Origin: Acidimicrobiia bacterium
GTDB taxonomy: Bacteria > Actinomycetota > Acidimicrobiia > Spongiisociales > ZC4RG35
Direction: 5' to 3'
DNA: 64,000 bases
Assembly: GCA_965203555.1 (NCBI GenBank)
Contig: CBDBCY010000004.1
Span: forward strand, 1,920,001 to 1,984,000
The notes below the pieces were generated by a model. That model saw only the letters and a list, made by a program, of their open reading frames with translations. It did no database searches and had not been told where the DNA came from. Shown piece after piece: positions 35,287 to 45,151 of the stretch (its first letter is position 1; the number at the start of each line of letters is the position of its first letter). Both the position numbers and the translations under genes were made by a program.

Positions 35287-36370
35287 ATGGAGGCTCACAA
35301 CACTGGGTCGCGTTACAACGATCTCAAGTGGCAGTATTCCGCCGAGACAGAACGGTGCCTATGACGTCATGGGTGCCAATGGGCGAATTGGCGCGGCTGC
35401 CGAGGCAAACTTCGGCCCGGGCTACCTTGTTGGTCGTGTGGGTGCAGTAGGGGTCATCACGAAAGTTGTTAGTCGTTGTTGGGCCTCGGACAACACTCTG
35501 ACGGTGGTGCCCAACGCTTTCATCAATGAATCCTTCCTGGGTCACATGCTGAACGTCCTGGATCTTCAGCGCTTGGCAACAAAGACTGCCCAGCCTCTCC
35601 TTATCCAATCTGAACTCCGAAAACGGAAGATCAGCCTGCCGCCGTTGGAGGAGCAGCGGCGGATCGCAGAAGTCCTGGACACGATCGAGGAAACCATCCA
35701 GGCTACAGAAGTCACCATCACCAAGTTGACCGTCGTGGCGCACGCTGTCCAGCACCAGATCATCTTGACAGGAGGTCGTCAGTCAACGACACTTGCCTCC
35801 CTTGCGAAACTCTACGGAGGTAACGGATTCCCGGAAGATGAACAGGGGCGCCCGAGTGGCTCTCTGCCTTTCTACAAGGTGAGTGACATGAACATCGCCG
35901 GTAACGAGAAATTCTTGTCTAAAGCCAACAACTACGTTGAACCCGACACAGCAAAACGCAGAAGGTGGCGGGTTCTTCCACCCGGTGCTGTTGTGTTCGC
36001 AAAAGTCGGTGCCGCTCTATTGAGTAACAGGCGCCGAATCCTGACAGTTTTCTCAATCATTGACAACAACATGATGGGTGCTGTACCCCGACAGGTTGTT
36101 TCAACGGAGTGGCTCTATCGGTGGTTACAGACTGTTGACTTTGCCGACCTTGTCCAAGTTGGAGCACTGCCGTCCGTCAATCAGAGCCTGGTCGGAAGTC
36201 TGACGCTTGATCTACCGCCGAGTGGGGAACAGGCACGTCATGTCGAAGTTCTTGACGCCTACGATTCTCGGATTAACGCCGAGAAAGCTCAGTTAAAAAA
36301 GTACGAACAGGTTAGAGATGGTCTCGCAGCTGATTTGCTTTCTGGCCGTGTCCGGACGGTAGCAGCGTGA
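35279..36370 (+). CDS. hsdS: Type I R-M specificity subunit
   Basis: Two TRD repeats with [15 protein letters not shown] and LPPSGEQ...LD; ends DLLSGRVR. Confidence 0.92.
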
Positions 36371-39300
36371 CTTTGGGGCCGGAGTGGGAAATGGTCGAGT
36401 GGCCGTTGTTGGAGCATCTTTCTTCGCTTGGCTGGGATACGTTGGTCTGGTCGGAACGTCAGCCAACCGACGGCGTGGCGCGGATGTCGGATCGTGATGT
36501 TCTTCTTGAGGAACGGCTGGGTCCCGGGTTGCTGAGGATAAACCGTGGACCGAACGGCCTGCCGTGGCTTGACGAAGTTCGGATCAAGGAGGCGGTTGCG
36601 GAGTTGGGGTCGATGCCGGCGGGGGCGAAGCTATTGGAGGCGAACCGAGTGTCGACGGATTTGTTGCTTCGAGGGGTTACGGTTGCGGGGCTCAATGGGT
36701 GGGATGGCGGTCGGGATCGGACCATCGATTACATCGATTGGAACAACTGGAAAGCCAATGACTTTCTTGCGGTGTCGCAGTTCCCGATCGCGACGCCGGG
36801 TAAGGCACCGAACATTCGACCCGACGTGACGTTGTTTGTGAACGGTATACCGTTGGTGGTGATCGAGGCCAAGCCTCCCGGCACCGCCAGCGGAATAGCG
36901 GACGCAGTAGATCAACTCCGCCGGTATGCCAACCAGCGAGGTGCCGAGGTTCCCGAGGGTGCGGAGCAATTGTTCTGGACGAATCAGTTCACTGTGGCTA
37001 CTACCGGTGAGCGGGCCGAGGCGGCAACGTTCACGGCGTTGCCTGAGCATTACATGGCTTGGAAGGATCCTTTCCCTTCCACGGTTGAGGAGGTAGCCGC
37101 CTCGTTGAGCAAACCGGTGGAGGCGGTTACTCAGCAGGAAGTGTTGACGGCTGGGATGTTGGCGCCGCAGCGGTTGCTGGACATTGTGAGGCATTTCACG
37201 GTGTTTATGGAGACCGGCCCGGGTCGTACAGTCAAGATCGTTGGGCGGTATCAGCAGTATCGGGGTGTCCACAAGGCGATGCGACGGTTGCTCACCGGCG
37301 CGACCAGAGCGGAGGATGGGGAGAGTGATCGCCGTGGTGGGATCGTCTGGCATACGCAGGGTTCCGGCAAGAGCCTGACGATGGCGTTTCTGGTCCGGGT
37401 GATGCGAAGCCATCCCGATTTGAGAAGGTTCAAGATTGTGCTGGTCACGGATCGGGTTGCTATTGAGCGGCAGCTTCGTGAGACAGCGGCGCTGGTTGGG
37501 GAGACCGTCAGGGTGGCCCGCAAGGGTGGGGAGGTTCGGGGGTTGGTTGGTCGCCCAGGGCCGGGTTTGGTGATGGTGATGATCCAGAAGTACCGGGACA
37601 TGTCGCCGGGTGGCAGCGGAGGCGGGGTTGGAAAGGAGACGTTCGGGACGTTAAACGAGTCGGAGGCGATCCTGGTGATGGTGGACGAGGCTCACCGATC
37701 TCATGGTTCGATTCTGCACGCCAATCTGATGGCTGCCCTGCCGAACGCGACCCGGATCGGGTTTACGGGCACTCCGATAATTATGGGCAAACGGAAAATG
37801 ACACGCGACATCTTCGGTGGGTATTTGGACAGGTATACGCTGGCTGACTCGGAGGCGGACGGGTCGACGGTGCCGATCTTCTACGAGGGCCGCACAACTG
37901 ACGCGGCCGTCAAGGGAGCTTCTAGGATGGACACGGTCTTTTTCAGGTGGTTCTCTGGGCTGACCGATGACCAGAGGCAGATTCTTCAGCAGAAGTACGC
38001 CACAGTCGCGCAGGTGCTTGAAGCTCCGGAGTTGATCAAGGCGAAGGCAAAGGACATCCTTCGTCATTACATCAGCACTGTGTTGCCGGACGGTTTCAAG
38101 GGCATGATCGTTGCTACCAGCCGGGAGGCTTGTCTCCGATATTTCAAAGCTTTGAACAAGGCTCGCGATGAACTCATTGACGAGATTAAGCGAATGGACC
38201 CGGATCAGCACGACATGGCCAGCACCCCGAGGTTCCCCCATTTGTCGTCGGCGGAGACCGCTGCTTCCCATAGTGAGCTGCTAGCCAGCATCGAGTTCGC
38301 CCCGGTGATCTCCGCAGATCACAACGATCCGCCGGATTACGCCCCATGGACCGACAAACAGCGTCAACAGGCACATATCGACAGCTTCAAGCTCCCACTT
38401 GGCTCCGCCGATGACGAACACAGTCCACTTGCGCTGTTGATCGTGAAGTCGATGTTGCTGACCGGGTTCGACGCACCGCAAGCGCAGGTTCTCTACCTCG
38501 ACCGCTTGATCCAGGAGGCTGAACTGCTCCAAGCCGTCGCTCGCGTCAACCGCACCGCACCGAAGAAGTCGTACGGACTGGTGGTCGATTACTACGGCGT
38601 GTCTGCTCAACTGTCCCAGGCTCTCGCCGCCTACGCCAACGCTGAGGGCGAGATCGTCGATCCCGACGTTGACGGGGCGCTCCGGTCGCTCGCCATCGAG
38701 ATCGAAAAGCTCGAACCGCAACGCCAACGCGTCAGGCAGTTCTTCGTCCAGCGCGGTGTCAAACCGGCCCCGGCCAACGAAGCGATCGAAGCCTGCGTTC
38801 AACTGCTTGCCGACGAACGGCTCCGGGCCGAGTTCGATATTGCACTGCGAGCCTTCTTCACCACCTTCGACACTGTCCTGCCGAGGCCGGAAGCACTGCC
38901 GTTCGTAGCGGATGTCAACCTCTTCGGTGAGATCCAGATCAGAACCCGACGCCGATATCGAGACACGCCCGATGGTGACTTCGATCCCCACAAATACAAG
39001 GAGAAGGTCCGACGTTTGATCGACCAGCACATCACGGTTCTGGACCTCAGCCAGAAGATCCAACCCTTGAAGATCAATGACCCGACCTTTGGCATTCACG
39101 TCAAAGGGATGGGTTCGGATCGGGCCATGGCGTCTGAGATGGAACACGCCGTACGTCACCACATCCGCACCCATGTTGACGAGGACCCCGCCTACTACGG
39201 CAAGTTGTCGGAGCGGATCGACGAGATCCTCGATCGGCTGGAGGACCGGTGGGAACAGATCGCGTTCGAATTGGAGGGGATGATCGACGAGATCAACGCC

Positions 39301-39618
39301 GGCCGCACCGATAGAGACCATACGGGCCTGGATCCGACTACCGAGCTCCCGTTCTACGGTCAAATGGTCGACAGAGTCGCGAGTTCAGCGCCGGAAACCA
39401 CCGAGCGTCTCATCCAACTCACCGTCGAACTTGTTGCCAGGATCGGCCGGATCATCGGTGTGGTGGGCTTCTGGGACAACGCCACCAAGCAAGACGAACT
39501 TCGGAAGGCTATCAAGCGAACGCTCGACGGGAGTGATCTGTTCGCTTTCTCCAGCCTTGACGAGTTGGCTGTCGAACTTGTCGCCCTCGCCAAAGCCAAC
39601 CAGCACCGCCTGTCATGA
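36367..39618 (+). CDS. hsdR: Type I R-M restriction subunit
   Basis: RPD..LFVNGIPLVVIEAK nuclease, WHTQGSGKS, DEAH, FTGTP, MLLTGFD, QAVARVNR. Confidence 0.96.
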   Translation: MTLGPEWEMVEWPLLEHLSSLGWDTLVWSERQPTDGVARMSDRDVLLEERLGPGLLRINRGPNGLPWLDEVRIKEAVAELGSMPAGAKLLEANRVSTDLLLRGVTVAGLNGWDGGRDRTIDYIDWNNWKANDFLAVSQFPIATPGKAPNIRPDVTLFVNGIPLVVIEAKPPGTASGIADAVDQLRRYANQRGAEVPEGAEQLFWTNQFTVATTGERAEAATFTALPEHYMAWKDPFPSTVEEVAASLSKPVEAVTQQEVLTAGMLAPQRLLDIVRHFTVFMETGPGRTVKIVGRYQQYRGVHKAMRRLLTGATRAEDGESDRRGGIVWHTQGSGKSLTMAFLVRVMRSHPDLRRFKIVLVTDRVAIERQLRETAALVGETVRVARKGGEVRGLVGRPGPGLVMVMIQKYRDMSPGGSGGGVGKETFGTLNESEAILVMVDEAHRSHGSILHANLMAALPNATRIGFTGTPIIMGKRKMTRDIFGGYLDRYTLADSEADGSTVPIFYEGRTTDAAVKGASRMDTVFFRWFSGLTDDQRQILQQKYATVAQVLEAPELIKAKAKDILRHYISTVLPDGFKGMIVATSREACLRYFKALNKARDELIDEIKRMDPDQHDMASTPRFPHLSSAETAASHSELLASIEFAPVISADHNDPPDYAPWTDKQRQQAHIDSFKLPLGSADDEHSPLALLIVKSMLLTGFDAPQAQVLYLDRLIQEAELLQAVARVNRTAPKKSYGLVVDYYGVSAQLSQALAAYANAEGEIVDPDVDGALRSLAIEIEKLEPQRQRVRQFFVQRGVKPAPANEAIEACVQLLADERLRAEFDIALRAFFTTFDTVLPRPEALPFVADVNLFGEIQIRTRRRYRDTPDGDFDPHKYKEKVRRLIDQHITVLDLSQKIQPLKINDPTFGIHVKGMGSDRAMASEMEHAVRHHIRTHVDEDPAYYGKLSERIDEILDRLEDRWEQIAFELEGMIDEINAGRTDRDHTGLDPTTELPFYGQMVDRVASSAPETTERLIQLTVELVARIGRIIGVVGFWDNATKQDELRKAIKRTLDGSDLFAFSSLDELAVELVALAKANQHRLS

Positions 39619-40388
39619 CCGCTACCGCAGTATTAGCTCTCCACGATCTCCCTGAGTTGGTAGTAGGAGACCTCGTTTTCAAAGTTGTTCCGGCATGCCG
39701 GCGCAAGACAATCGAGATCGTTGTCGAACGCGACGCGTCGCTAGTTCTCAAGGCTCCACCAACCGTGACAATCGAACGCGCAACGAGATTCGTTGCCGAA
39801 AAACGCCAATGGGTCTACCGCAAACTGGTCGAGAAGGACGCACTAATCGGTCCACCAGTCGTCAAGAAGTTTGTCGAAGGAGAAGGGTTCGCCTACCTCG
39901 GCCGCAGCTACCGACTAACCCTCACCCCCGAGGGGACCTGCGTTCGCCTCCATCAAGGCCGGTTCCATCTCCCCGCCGCGCAGGCAGACCAGGGCACTGC
40001 TGCCATGCGTCGCTGGTACACCGATGTCGGTAGCAAGTGGCTCCAAAAGAGGATCTGCCCTTGGGCTGCCCGACTCGGAGAACGATCAGTAGCCGTCGAA
40101 GTCCGCGACCTGGGCTTCCGGTGGGGCTCAGCACGTCCTCACAAAGGGCACCAACACATCAACATCCACTGGGCCACCCTTCAACTGCCCCCGACCCTCA
40201 TCGACTACATCCTGGTTCACGAACTCGCCCATCTGCCCGAGGCCAACCACGCCCCCGAATTCTGGTCGATCGTCGCACGCCTGATGCCGGGATACCAGTC
40301 ACAGAAAACTGCTCTAGCTTCTGTCGGCAAAAGCGTGTGGCTGGGTTCCTCGATCAACCGAGGCGTTGAGTGGTATCTCGAAAAGTGA
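39615..40388 (+). CDS. YgjP/DUF45 (M48-like) metal-dependent hydrolase
   Basis: GE.F.YLG..Y.L, RWGS, DYILVHELAH....NH..EFW; ATGA overlap with hsdR. Confidence 0.9.
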   Translation: MTATAVLALHDLPELVVGDLVFKVVPACRRKTIEIVVERDASLVLKAPPTVTIERATRFVAEKRQWVYRKLVEKDALIGPPVVKKFVEGEGFAYLGRSYRLTLTPEGTCVRLHQGRFHLPAAQADQGTAAMRRWYTDVGSKWLQKRICPWAARLGERSVAVEVRDLGFRWGSARPHKGHQHINIHWATLQLPPTLIDYILVHELAHLPEANHAPEFWSIVARLMPGYQSQKTALASVGKSVWLGSSINRGVEWYLEK

Positions 40389-41539
40389 GGCTGCGCGTTT
40401 TTGTGGGGAGCAGGGTTTAGGGAGGGGTCCTTGGTTAGGGGTTGAGGCCTCGCTGGAATAGGTGGTGTAAGCGAATCGCCTATCCAGGAGGCCTCGATGA
40501 ATGATGTTATGTCGGTCCGGTTGCACCTGCGTGGTGTGAGGGTGACCGAGGTGATGGTTGACACCCTCACAGAGCTGGTGGTGGGAGTTGTTTCGGTGAA
40601 AAAGCTGTCCTTGTGTCCCTATTGTGGTCGGTCCTGCCGGCGGGTGCACGACCGGCGTCAGCGGCGGATCCGCGATCTGGAAGTGAGTGGACGTTTGACC
40701 GTGCTGTTGTGGATCCAGCGACGGTACGTATGCGATGGGTGCGGGAAAACGGCACATGGAAACCCACCCCCAGTTTCTGGGCGGTATAACGCGTCGCCTG
40801 GCCCGCCGACTGGTCTCATCTGATCCGAACCCGGCGGCGCCGACAGAGATGCCGGGTGCTTCTGATCGACGAAACATCGATCAGGAAACGCCACCGCTAT
40901 GTGACCGTGATCGCCAACGGCGACACCGGCGAGATACTGTCCATGTTCCCCGGACGCTCCAAACAAGCCTTGAGCAGGTTCTTCATCGAACAGGGACCCC
41001 GCTGGTGCCAGAACGTGCAGACCGTGGTCTCAGACGGTTCCCGCTCCTATCAGGCGGCCATAGTCCGCTACCTTCCTTCGGCCCGTCATGTCCTGGACCG
41101 GTTCCACGCCGCTCGCCGGTATCACCGAAGGTCTCACCCTGGATGCGCCGGGACCTGCAACGCCAGCCGCCAGGCGTCAAACCCGCCTGGCGCCCGGATC
41201 TGTTCCGCGCCCGGTTCGTGCTCCTCAAGAGAAGGGACCATATCACCCCAAAAGAGCAGAAACGTCTCAAACGGCTGTTCGAGGCGTATCCGCGTCTGCG
41301 GATCGCCTGGGACGCTCTGCAACAGCTCTACGGCCTGTACGAGGCCAAAGACCTCCCCACCGCGCTCGAGACCCTGGAACGGTTCGTGAAACTGTACGAA
41401 ACCGGCCAGATACCCGAGTACTACCACACCGTAAACACTGTCCTCAACTGGTCAAACGAGATCCTCAACTGGCACCACACCCGACGCTCCAACGGACCCC
41501 TGGAAGGTATCAACAACCTCATCCACTCATACTTATAGG

Positions 41540-41725
41540 TGCCCCTGGGCCGGGGCGGGTCTGACTCCAACCTAACCTGGCCTGTTTGTGCCTTTGGTTT
41601 GATTTGTCGGCCTGCTTCCGGCCTGGGGGCGGCGCTCTCCCGACAGGGCGGCTGTGACCTGATAGGAGCCTTGCTCTTGCCACTTGAGTGGTCCGTCCAC
41701 CGCCTTTTCGGGTCAGGGAGAACAG
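41540..41725 (+). ncRNA. Putative IS110 bridge RNA (target-binding and donor-binding loops)
   Basis: Long stem 41541-41565/41606-41630 and stem CCCGACAGGGCGG/CCGCCTTTTCGGG enclose segments matching target and donor junction sequences. Confidence 0.7.
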
Positions 41726-41754
41726 AACCGATTCTAAATGAGGAGAAGAGACGA

Positions 41755-42969
41755 ATGTCAGATCGGGTTGATGTGTTCGGTGGGGTGGACACCCACCGCG
41801 ATGTTCATGTGGCGGCGGTGGTGGATACCACCGGTCGGGTGTTGGGCACGGCATCGTTCGGAACCGACACAGCCGGTTATGAACAACTGGGCAACTGGCT
41901 GGGGTCACACGGCAACGTTGCCCAGGTCGGAATAGAGGGCACCGGCAGCTACGGCGCCGGCCTGACCCGCTACCTGGTGAGAATCGGTGTCGAGGTAGTG
42001 GAAGTGAACCGTCCCAACCGTCAACTGCGCCGCCGGTTCGGCAAGACCGACGCCACCGACGCTCAGGCCGCGGCCCGGGCTGTTTTGAGCGGACAGGCCA
42101 CCGGGACACCCAAAAGCGGCGACGGACCAGTCGAAGCGATCAGGATGCTTCGGGTGGTCCGCCGTTCGGCCGCCAAGGCCCGCACCCAGACCATCAACCA
42201 GCTGCACGCTCTGGTGGTCACCGCTCCCGACCAGGTCAAACACCAACTCGGGAGCCTTTCCCCGAAAGCCCGGGTGAAGGTCTGCGCCGCCTATCGTCCC
42301 GGCGCGAACCGGACCAATATCGCCTATGCCAAGAAAGCGTTGCGTCTGTTGGCCCGCCGATACCAAGCACTTACCTGGGAGATCCAACAACTCGACACCG
42401 AAATCAAACAGCTCTGCGCCCGGGCCAACCCGGCGCTGCTGGCTGCCGGTGGGATCGGCCCCGAAACCGCCGCCGCGCTGCTGGTCACCGCCGGGGACAA
42501 CCCCCACCGCATGCGCACAGAAGCGTCTTTCGCCGCTCTCTGCGGCGCAAGCCCCGTCCAAGCGTCGTCGGGACGCATAGTGCGTCACCGACTCAACCGC
42601 GGCGGCGACCGCCAAGCCAACAACGCCCTCTGGCGTATAGCCACAGTACGGCTACGCACCGACCCCCGCACCATCGAATACGCCCAACGGCGACAAGCCG
42701 AAGGCAAAACCCGCAAAGAGATCATCCGCTGCCTGAAACGCTACATCGCCCGCCAGGTCTACCGACTGCTGACCAACCCGAACCAAACACCCAACGGCAG
42801 CGATCTACGCTGCCTACGCCAAAAAACCCAAACAACTCTGGCTCGCGCCGCCATAGCCCTCCAAACCCACCCAAACCGCCTCTCACAACTCGAACGAGGC
42901 CTCTACCACAACCACCAACTCGCCACCCAATACCAACACTGGCTCACCACCCCCCAAACCCCAATTTGA
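41755..42969 (+). CDS. IS110 DEDD recombinase/transposase with C-terminal XRE-like HTH
   Basis: GVDTH, GIEGTG, KTDATDA (DEDD), PVQASSG serine motif, RLNRGGDRQAN, RCLKR; GAGGAG RBS. Confidence 0.93.
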   Translation: MSDRVDVFGGVDTHRDVHVAAVVDTTGRVLGTASFGTDTAGYEQLGNWLGSHGNVAQVGIEGTGSYGAGLTRYLVRIGVEVVEVNRPNRQLRRRFGKTDATDAQAAARAVLSGQATGTPKSGDGPVEAIRMLRVVRRSAAKARTQTINQLHALVVTAPDQVKHQLGSLSPKARVKVCAAYRPGANRTNIAYAKKALRLLARRYQALTWEIQQLDTEIKQLCARANPALLAAGGIGPETAAALLVTAGDNPHRMRTEASFAALCGASPVQASSGRIVRHRLNRGGDRQANNALWRIATVRLRTDPRTIEYAQRRQAEGKTRKEIIRCLKRYIARQVYRLLTNPNQTPNGSDLRCLRQKTQTTLARAAIALQTHPNRLSQLERGLYHNHQLATQYQHWLTTPQTPI

Positions 42970-43266
42970 CAAACATAGGAGCATCAAACCCTCCGGCGCA
43001 CCGCCCACGGGTTCACCAACACACACAACTACGCTGCCCGAGCACTCCTCCTAACATGAACCCCACCACCTACCAGCCAGACCACAATCCCATAAATACG
43101 CGCAGTGCCCAAAAAGTGAACTTATGCAGACCATGGAGCACCATCCGCAAGACTGCCGTGGCTGCTCCGCTCTACTCAGTAGGGAGCGGCGCACAACTCG
43201 CAACCTCCACAACCTTGATAACACTTATCGCCCGACTACCGCATAGTCCATTGGCGAATGGCACAT

Positions 43267-43905
43267 CTACACCTCACGCGGCTCAGCAGCGCCTCGTTCC
43301 GGGAACAGGCCACGGAGCCGATCACCGACGGATATGATCCTGGCCTGTTCCTCGGCTTCTCGGCTGAGCTTGGACTGCTGAGGACCGAGGGGTGTGTCGT
43401 ATTTGGCACCGGCGGGATATGGCTGTGAAGTCTCCTTGTCGAGTTTCCAAAGCACGAGTTGGCAGATCCGACTACCGGTAATGAGCTTGAGGGGAACGGT
43501 TCCGCTGTTTACCAGTTCAAGGGTCAGCGCTCCTGTGAACCCCGGATGCACGGTCACCGCGGTGGCGACGAGGAGACCGTTGCGGGCCCACGAAGACCGG
43601 TTCAGGACTTGGCCTGCGAGATGGCGCGGTACTCGTAGGTACTCTAGCGTCGACCCCAACAGAAATTGGCCCGGGTGGATAATGAGTTGGTTGCCAAACG
43701 CGACGTTAAATCGCTGCTCGTCGTTGGCAGTGAACGGGTCAAGGACCCCTTGCTTTGTTCGTTGTACTTCCATGAACTCGGTGCCGAGGCGAAGATCGAT
43801 CGAGGCCGAGCCGATCTGTTTGGGATCAAGCATCGGGCACACGATTAGCCGCCGGTCCGCATCGTCATGATTGAGGACGGCGCGGATGGCGGTGTCAGAC
43901 AGCAT
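43267..43905 (-). CDS. dcd: dCTP deaminase (trimeric dUTPase fold), atypical
   Basis: MLSD..I, SIDLRLG, HPGQFLLGSTLE, RSSWARNGL, PGFTG.LTLELVN, RICQL, AKY. Confidence 0.88.
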   Translation of the reverse strand: MLSDTAIRAVLNHDDADRRLIVCPMLDPKQIGSASIDLRLGTEFMEVQRTKQGVLDPFTANDEQRFNVAFGNQLIIHPGQFLLGSTLEYLRVPRHLAGQVLNRSSWARNGLLVATAVTVHPGFTGALTLELVNSGTVPLKLITGSRICQLVLWKLDKETSQPYPAGAKYDTPLGPQQSKLSREAEEQARIISVGDRLRGLFPERGAAEPREV

Positions 43906-45151
43906 CGTGATCGCTCCACAGGCGACGGATCTGGGCCATTTCGATGGCGCGTAACAGCACCCGGCTCAACTCGTAGTCGTTTGGTGCCTCAGCCAGTGTC
44001 TCCGGGGAGTCACCGTGAACCTTGAATGACCACTGCCACCCCAGCGTCAATATCTGCCAGGGTCCGATGGGCTCTTGGTCGACCTCGCTTGGCGGCACCC
44101 GCATGCGCAGTTGATCTAAGGCGCGTGGAGCGACCGCGGCGTGTGCCTCGGCGCTCATCGGCTCCGCGACATGGTGGGAGACGGTCGATTCGATCGCTGG
44201 CGCCAGTGCTTCACAGGCTTCTCGCAGGAACCGTTCTTGTTGCGATGTCGGCATGCGAGAAGCCTGTTGCCGGAGCCATCCGATGGTCTTAGGGCAGGTG
44301 TCCTCCATTAAGTCGCCCCACCCGGTGGACTCCAACGACGACAGGGACAAGTGGAGTCGGTAACTCGGGAAGGGATGGGTGCTTGTGGGATCGTCCGGCG
44401 CTGTAGCAGGAAGGAATGCGGCTCCGGCGAACAGATAGCTGGGTCCACAGAGCGATGTTGCCAAGCTGTCGCAGACCAACTCGTCAACCCAGCCCACGAG
44501 TTGGGTTTGCGCCTTGAAACGAGTCTCGGGATCTGCGTCGACGAGGTGTTTTGCGAGCAGGGCGTTGAGGTCGTCGCTGGCGACGCTCATCGCGGTGCTT
44601 CCCAGGTTTGCTTGAAGGATCGCGGTATGTCCGATCTCGTGGACGAGCAGTGGGGTCATGAGCGCGTTGAACGGACTCAGGACCGGCACGAAGAAGGCGA
44701 CGGGGGTTGGCTCACTTCCCTGTGGCCAACGAAGGAATTGGTACAGGTCAAGCGTCGCGTACATGTGGGCATCAATGAGATGAACTACAGGATCCGCGCC
44801 TGCGGGCAGCAAAGCGGCAATAGCCGAGTCGAGCGCTACCAGCATGCCGATCGGTACGTCATCTCTGCGAGCGCTTTCTATCAGCGGTCGTAGAAACGGC
44901 AGAATCGTCTCCACTTCTGTCAATGTCCGGCGCAGTGTCCGCTCCGCGTAGCGCAGTACGCTGGCGTTGTAGCCAGCCTCAAGCTTGGCGTCAATGTCGG
45001 CGAGCGTTTCTTCCGCTTGCTCGATCACTCGGCGGTGCAGGTCAAAGAGCCTGGCGCCGCGGCCGGTGTGGCTTGTTGGTTGCCCTCGACGTGCGCTGTC
45101 GATGTGGCCGGAGATCAGGCTTCGGATGAACTCAAGGCCTCGCTCATCCAT
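43895..45151 (-). CDS. Uncharacterised soluble HExxH zinc-metallopeptidase-like protein
   Basis: H171-E-I-G-H175, E224xxxD228, THP..R motif; GGAGG RBS; overlaps both neighbours. Confidence 0.75.
   Translation of the reverse strand: MDERGLEFIRSLISGHIDSARRGQPTSHTGRGARLFDLHRRVIEQAEETLADIDAKLEAGYNASVLRYAERTLRRTLTEVETILPFLRPLIESARRDDVPIGMLVALDSAIAALLPAGADPVVHLIDAHMYATLDLYQFLRWPQGSEPTPVAFFVPVLSPFNALMTPLLVHEIGHTAILQANLGSTAMSVASDDLNALLAKHLVDADPETRFKAQTQLVGWVDELVCDSLATSLCGPSYLFAGAAFLPATAPDDPTSTHPFPSYRLHLSLSSLESTGWGDLMEDTCPKTIGWLRQQASRMPTSQQERFLREACEALAPAIESTVSHHVAEPMSAEAHAAVAPRALDQLRMRVPPSEVDQEPIGPWQILTLGWQWSFKVHGDSPETLAEAPNDYELSRVLLRAIEMAQIRRLWSDHDAV

Follow-up and report, generated by a model that had tools for sequence, protein, structure and literature searches.

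Guide segments in the leader of an IS110-group element covary with insertion sites and point to a bridge RNA aimed at ISL3

An IS110-group insertion sequence occupies positions 41524-42985 of the window, the 64,000-nt stretch of DNA analysed here, where it lies inside a decayed ISL3 transposase gene. Does its non-coding leader encode a bridge RNA, and do the guides in that leader account for the choice of ISL3 as the site of insertion? Durrant 2024 (PMC11208160) reports bridge RNAs predicted in 85.7% of IS110-group entries together with covariation over thousands of orthologues, and Siddiquee 2024 (PMC11187229) reports RNA guidance shown for an IS110-type element. Our literature search, with the supplementary tables of Durrant 2024 outside its scope, found no paper on the Acidimicrobiia IS110 clade considered here. 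We conclude that the leader of the element very probably encodes an IS110 bridge RNA that acts with a DEDD/Ser recombinase. It belongs to a kind that has been described before, and the locus brings no new principle. The features on which the argument rests, including the target guides (LTG, RTG) and the donor guides (LDG, RDG), are collected in Table 1.

The recombinase gene of the element is intact. Its product matches PF01548 (DEDD_Tnp_IS110) with E 9.2e-26 over residues 10-154 and PF02371 (Transposase_20, the C-terminal Tnp domain) with E 1.4e-18, and it scores 202.6 bits, at a cutoff of 140, against the NCBIfam equivalog NF033542, "IS110 family RNA-guided transposase". In a phmmer comparison the similarity to IS621 (8wt6) is low and covers partial stretches only (E 3.5e-11), with ISCro4 (9t56) as the second-best solved relative (E 6.4e-10). 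The D, E, D..D and SG motifs of IS621 are matched in the recombinase alignment, as in the DEDD/Ser type, and the SG motif aligns with the SG of chain 8wt6_A; by the numbering of the IS621 paper and an assumed tag offset of two residues, the aligned serine would be S241. The leader was found by nhmmer upstream of homologous transposase genes, with 88 matches in 98 loci. The left end of 230 nt and the right end of 15 nt give the layout of a long left and a short right non-coding end that Durrant 2024 (PMC11208160) describes for the IS110 group.

Table 1. Features of the element, its predicted bridge RNA and its ISL3 target (window positions)
Feature	Position	Strand	Evidence
5' part of host ISL3 transposase gene	40497..41523	+	Pfam Zn_ribbon_ISL3 and DDE_Tnp_ISL3 on three separate ORF pieces
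Left target half-site (LT) CAACCTCATC	41514-41523	+	End of ISL3 5' part; empty copies read through
Left copy of core C	41524..41524	+	Junctions at occupied sites set against two empty ISL3 copies
Left non-coding end, 230 nt, very probably bridge RNA-encoding	41525..41754	+	nhmmer leader matches upstream of homologous transposase genes
-10-like hexamer CATACT, putative circle-only promoter	41528..41533	+	Conserved; analogy with IS621
Stem-loop 1, target-binding loop scaffold (predicted)	41542..41629	+	RNAalifold consensus
Stem-loop 1 helices	41542-41545/41626-41629, 41552-41565/41606-41618	+	RNAalifold consensus
LTG CAACCTAACC, same sense as LT 41514-41523, 8/10 bases match	41568..41577	+	Flank match, covariation
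Stem-loop 1 top hairpin	41579-41592	+	RNAalifold consensus
RTG GGTTTG, complementary to core C + AAACC (42985-42990)	41596..41601	+	Flank match, covariation
Handshake guide of target-binding loop, AT	41602..41603	+	Complementary to donor AT 42983-42984, not to target TC
Stem-loop 2, donor-binding loop scaffold (predicted)	41645..41707	+	RNAalifold consensus
Stem-loop 2 helices	41645-41648/41704-41707, 41653-41658/41695-41699	+	RNAalifold consensus
LDG ATAGGAGC, same sense as right end 42975-42982	41662..41669	+	Conservation only
RDG TGAGTG, complementary to core C + ACTCA (41524-41529)	41685..41690	+	Match, co-change
Handshake guide of donor-binding loop, G	41691..41691	+	Complementary to target C41523, just left of core
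Ribosome-binding site GAGGAG	41740-41745	+	Ahead of recombinase gene
IS110-family recombinase gene, 404 aa, intact	41755..42969	+	Pfam, NCBIfam, structure alignment
-35 hexamer TTGACA, putative circle-junction promoter; overlaps stop codon	42966..42971	+	Conserved
Short right non-coding end	42970-42984	+	
Right donor end (LD) ATAGGAGCAT	42975..42984	+	Sequence match; family end comparison
Right copy of core C	42985..42985	+	Empty-site comparison
Right target half-site AAACC (42986-42990) and ISL3 3' remainder	42986..43059	+	Empty copies continuous

For the comparison across the family, 80 related loci yielded 50 elements with left and right ends paired, 49 of which are tabulated; locus L025, with its left flank missing and its right end mis-assigned, is left out of all counts. 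The 49 elements reduce to 35 distinct guide/site pairs and to 28 distinct guide pairs. Both ends of these elements carry hexamers of promoter type: TTGACA stands at a fixed position in 38 of the 49, and the -10 position holds CATACT in 29 and CATAAT in 14 (together 43). When the two ends are joined via one C, TTGACA and CATACT are separated by a 17-nt spacer. Since IS621 reconstitutes a promoter in its circle (Durrant 2024, PMC11208160), we infer by analogy that this promoter would be assembled only in the excised circle. A search for sequencing runs that contain the stretch gave three DNA runs of one study and no RNA run. In the DNA runs, covered as contigs only, no circle junction, skipped form or joint was seen, and the loose ends in those contigs belong to other copies. 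A scan of positions 41000-43500 against Rfam 15, with E up to 10, returned no match.

Four words in the leader had been singled out in the original prediction as guide segments, and all four are present and exact. CAACCT at 41568-41573 (+ strand) equals the left flank at 41514-41519; GGTTTGAT at 41596-41603 is the reverse complement of the right junction, 42983-42990; ATAGGAGC, the LDG, equals the right end of the element; and TGAGTGG at 41685-41691 is the reverse complement of CCACTCA at 41523-41529. Taken singly these matches are weak, as first-order Markov versions of the leader reach the lengths of 6, 8, 8 and 7 in 3354, 1429, 143 and 852 of 20,000 surrogates (17%, 7%, 0.7% and 4%). Taken jointly they are not, as none of the 20,000 surrogate leaders contains the full set, with neither the observed order nor the position in loops imposed on the surrogates; multiplied together, the single frequencies give about 4e-6. 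The words stand in the order LTG-RTG-LDG-RDG and follow the strand logic that Durrant 2024 gives for IS621, as had been proposed.

The leader also has a conserved fold. RNAalifold was given 29 aligned leaders, one per distinct sequence type, and its consensus consists of two stem-loops in which standard pairs fill 93.5% of 837 cells, versus 86.5% in shuffles, and 17 of 29 pairs have changes on both sides, versus 9.1 in shuffles. All five structure measures were reached by none of 500 shuffles. The shuffle control is generous, as the sequences are related; the firmer control, in which the 3' partners were slid by 1-3 columns, brought pairing down to 39-57%. Within stem-loop 2, pair 126/205 is changed on both sides in 14 sequences and pair 137/197 in 9. 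The many G-U pairs identify the + strand as the folded strand. Folded as a single sequence, 41521-41755 reaches -103.1 kcal/mol versus -88.05 kcal/mol for shuffles (z -3.2). Both loops are closed below by a GAC/GUC helix, and the top hairpin of loop 1 is GGC/GCC, replaced by GAC/GUC in 5 sequences. The guides had been expected inside two long stems; the two stem-loops are there, but in the consensus structure the segments occupy internal loops, not stems, the LTG in the 5' half (41566-41578) and the RTG in the 3' half (41593-41605) of the internal loop of stem-loop 1, and the LDG and RDG facing each other across the loop of stem-loop 2. Measured from the closing GAC stems, LDG and LTG have different offsets, and a parallel between their registers was therefore rejected.

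The geometry of the junctions can be read from empty sites. In two ISL3 copies of the same genome that are uninterrupted, the site reads ..CAACAACCTCATC-C-AAACCCTCCG.. (..CCTCATC-C-AAACC..), and in the occupied ISL3 copies the left junction is ..CCTCATC-C-ACTCAT.. and the right one ..GGAGCAT-C-AAACC..; as read by eye, the empty copies keep the frame ..INNLIQTLRRTAHGF.. across the site. Target and donor have one C in common, and at the ISL3 site the next base, A (A41525), as well. The same succession of LT, C and RT is found in empty sites of a family with 13 copies in one Spongiisociaceae genome, whose target is the repeat ..ACTGAAATC-C-GATGA.., and of the L050, L062, L004, L005 (7 empty copies in the present genome) and L019 (8 in the present genome) targets; two matches to the L040 target with a 9-nt spacer were not counted as empty sites. 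Across the seven families insertion is site-specific, with one shared C and without a longer target duplication. The core had originally been placed within (C)ATC; the empty sites of the seven families give instead the single shared C at 41524/42985, which moves the left boundary one base to the right. A core of ATC or of CA is ruled out by the empty sites and by the variable base after the C at right junctions. In the right junctions, the C is followed by a base that depends on the target, and the left junction always continues ACTCAT; in the left junctions, the base before the C varies, and the right junction always has AT before the C. From this division of fixed and variable bases it follows that the crossover lies immediately 3' of the C on both products. 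In agreement with this, Hiraizumi 2024 (PMC11208158) describes for IS621 top strands that are cut just downstream of the core, with the last core base invariant.

If the target guides select the site, they should change with it, and covariation of the guides with the insertion sites of homologs was the refutation test set beforehand. It was found across the 28 guide pairs. The LTG, scored over nine bases in the better of two registers, agrees with its own left flank at 7.75 positions on average and with non-cognate flanks at 3.63, and the five variable bases of the RTG agree with the cognate right flank at 4.14 and with non-cognate ones at 1.32; in neither case did any of 20,000 permutations do as well. 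The same is seen inside this one genome, where the copies of 87% and 72% identity carry different RTGs, each matching its own right flank: the 87% copy has TGGTGGAT in place of the window's GGTTTGAT and the right junction ATCCACCA, and the 72% copy has TGCCAGAT at that guide and the right junction ATCTGGCA. Under fixed indexing, misfits are limited to three of the 28 guide families (L022, L024 and L075) and one extra copy, L042. Two of them, L024 and L075, carry left-end indels, which upset the fixed indexing. Also of note, for L042 and L022 neither guide of the element fits the site that it occupies, which in the case of L022 is the target of another family; these may be off-target or "half-match" insertions, the latter an idea put forward in a preprint, or products of recombination between copies.

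The two registers of the LTG differ by one base. By our reading of the family table, the LTG ends on the core C with its own last base (C) in 17 of 28 families; in 8, including that of the window, the match to LT is shifted to the left by one base and leaves the core C uncovered; neither register fits the remaining 3. In the window copy the first six bases of the LTG are CAACCT, and the guide has two mismatches to the ISL3 site. Empty sites back both registers, the shifted one in L001, L004 and the 13-copy family and the other in L050, L062, L005 and L019. A terminal rU-dG wobble may lie behind the shift, which is one idea. The core C is covered by the RTG and the RDG and not by the LDG, and the LTG covers it in the 17 families but not in the window element.

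On the donor side, nearly all elements have ATAGGAGC both as LDG and as right end, with one-sided exceptions in L057 and L028 and without a double change, so that what speaks for the LDG is conservation only. The RDG, in contrast, varies together with the left end, as elements with CACGC or CACAC carry GCGTG or GTGTG (L069, L076, L080, L060 and L075). As for the handshake guides, in 27 of 28 families the complement of 41602-41603 equals the two donor bases that precede the C, and in none does it equal those of the target; two families are changed on both sides, with TT facing AA. In 26 of the 28 families the complement of 41691 is the target base (C, A or G) that precedes the C, and in none is it the donor T. 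The matches of eight and seven letters proposed for the RTG and the RDG are present, but they are really 6+2 and 6+1, a guide followed by a handshake guide, and it is the extra bases that match the recombined junctions and not the substrates. Likewise, the AT in ATCAAACC, taken earlier for target sequence, is donor sequence, and C41523 in CCACTCA, taken for element sequence, is target sequence, each at a handshake position. In IS621, according to Hiraizumi 2024 (PMC11208158), the handshake guides pair with non-cognate DNA after top-strand exchange, and handshake pairing with cognate DNA blocks exchange; a 2026 paper on directionality reports that the same handshake guides modulate excision. 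The set of 28 families shows this handshake rule holding in nature.

The choice of ISL3 can be followed in the host genome, which comprises 3.4 Mb in four contigs at 62% G+C and, judged by its relatives, is an Acidimicrobiia assembly. Copies of the element number three at 100% identity, one at 87% and one at 72%, besides 13 further partial matches. All three identical copies lie at the same base of ISL3 genes. ISL3 as the natural target is borne out, with three occupied and two empty ISL3 sites: scored with the window's guides in the shifted register, the two empty ones are the best sites in the genome, at 2 mismatches, and none of the 28 sites with at most 3 mismatches is better. Between the ISL3 host of the window and the other two hosts, about 311 of 1281 aligned columns differ, which implies at least two independent insertions at the same base. 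The other two hosts (L002 and L003) differ from each other at 1 of 1281 columns, and here one insertion may have been copied along with ISL3. The third identical copy (L003, L014; G000 C4:2912883-2916638) is cut at element position 1428 of 1465, in the last codons of the recombinase, with about 2.3 kb of other DNA before its last 41 bases follow. Apart from the insertion, the host ISL3 gene in the window is itself decayed, as its zinc-ribbon and DDE parts are spread over at least three ORFs or frames in 40497-41538. The locus documents one mobile element specifically disabling another.

Several other readings of these data have to be weighed. That the four words are chance similarities in a GC-rich, low-complexity leader would agree with how commonly each turns up alone in surrogates; their joint occurrence in no surrogate, together with flank matches at the same columns in 28 guide families, refutes a chance origin, to which we assign a negligible probability. 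Another reading would make the words sub-terminal transposase sites at the DNA level, the leader a structured 5' UTR and the protein the part that picks the target. The LDG and RDG words could then simply be conserved with the ends, and the LDG, with no double change, agrees with this. However, two of the words have their matches in DNA beyond the element and vary with the flank, the RDG changes with the left end in 5 elements, and the helices keep pairing through G-U pairs and double changes on the + strand; moreover, the IS110 family is reported to be RNA-guided in experiments (Durrant 2024, Hiraizumi 2024, Siddiquee 2024). We therefore regard DNA-level sites as very improbable.

A bridge-RNA element could also be genuine and yet owe its distribution to a single ISL3 insertion, spread by ISL3 transposition or gene conversion, in which case it may be inactive. 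The near identity of the L002 and L003 hosts, the interruption of the L003 copy near its 3' end by another insertion and the two ISL3 sites that are still empty speak for it. Against it stand the divergence of the window's host, which requires at least two events at the same base, the intact recombinase ORF with its catalytic motifs and the 100% identity of the copies, and we consider this course of events very unlikely too, if somewhat less so than DNA-level sites.

Returning to the bridge RNA, we envision the following process by analogy with IS621. Transcription of the 230-nt left end would yield a bridge RNA about 180 nt long, folded into two stem-loops, which the recombinase would bind. 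In loop 2, the LDG (41662-41669) and the RDG (41685-41690) would pair with the abutted right and left ends of an excised circular intermediate, the form in which the TTGACA-17 nt-CATACT promoter would be complete. The RNA-loaded recombinase would then exchange strands immediately 3' of the single C common to donor and target, the top strands presumably first, and the handshake guides 3' of the RTG (41602-41603) and 3' of the RDG (41691) would pair only with the partner DNA, after top-strand exchange.

Much of this is shared with IS621 of E. coli (PMC11208160, PMC11208158). There, too, the RNA is encoded by the left end, ahead of the gene for a DEDD/Ser recombinase, has a length similar to the 180 nt or so predicted here, and forms two stem-loops with internal loops, the first binding the target and the second the donor. 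Handshake guides 3' of RTG and RDG are a further likeness, and the -35 and -10 that IS621 joins in its circle have sequence counterparts in the right and left ends here. The differences, besides the low protein similarity, concern geometry. Where IS621 has a CT dinucleotide core, we find not a core dinucleotide in all four pairings but one shared base only, the C. In most families here the base before that C is T in the donor and C, A or G in the target, and it is read by the handshake and is not part of the core. The LDG ends 3 bases short of the crossover, the LTG occurs in two registers relative to the core, and the window's LDG, and its LTG in the register it uses, leave the core base unpaired. 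ISCro4/IS622 (9t56; preprint 10.1101/2025.05.14.653916), compared by protein, belongs to the same protein family and is distant in sequence. The seekRNAs of IS1111- and IS110-type elements described by Siddiquee 2024 (PMC11187229) are also non-coding RNAs with short matches to both target strands; in the IS110 type, as here, the region lies upstream of the transposase gene, whereas for IS1111 the same paper describes an RNA that lies downstream, long sub-terminal inverted repeats and target-matching regions in reverse order. The relatives in Acidimicrobiia metagenome assemblies (L019-L080), at 51-84% amino-acid identity, have the same scaffold, ends and junction promoter, but each lineage has its own LTG and RTG and its own target.

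We tentatively suggest that the Acidimicrobiia IS110 clade has a variant geometry, with a one-nucleotide core C, adjoining handshakes, a pre-crossover base read by the donor loop and two half-site spacings, the last drawn from the position of the LTG end, which is the core in 17 families and one base short of it in 8; we rate this proposal at somewhat less than even odds. If true, half-site spacing and core length would be evolvable in bridge recombinases and not fixed at the values of IS621. Bridge recombinases are under development as programmable genome-rearrangement tools, and natural diversity guides their engineering. The 28 guide/target pairs, seven with empty sites, make up a natural data set from a GC-rich clade far from IS621, and it suggests a one-base core and a flexible register of the left half-site.

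The surroundings of the element and of its relatives provided some further observations. On one side of the host ISL3 gene, 36367-40388 encodes the R subunit of a type I restriction system and, after it, a YgjP-like metallopeptidase, and on the other, 43267-45151 holds a dCTP-deaminase-like gene and an overlapping gene of 418 aa; these neighbors look like a defence island, with no Pfam match for the 418-aa protein and no PADLOC match for either it or the dCTP-deaminase-like protein. The 72% copy (L005; G000 C4:2306491-2307943) lies in a repeat, ..CACATCGTCCA-C-TGGCAAGA.., of which 7 uninterrupted copies are present and whose frame looks, by eye, like an HNH-type nuclease motif. The L019-type element comes from another assembly; the 8 uninterrupted copies of its target in G000 are accompanied, of that guide type, by the fragment L013 alone. 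Finally, at L026:2248 a relative has inserted into another IS110 copy, within the right-end segment TTGACAAA (-35), and the LTG of the inserted relative matches that segment at 9 of 9 bases, an IS110 element aimed at IS110.
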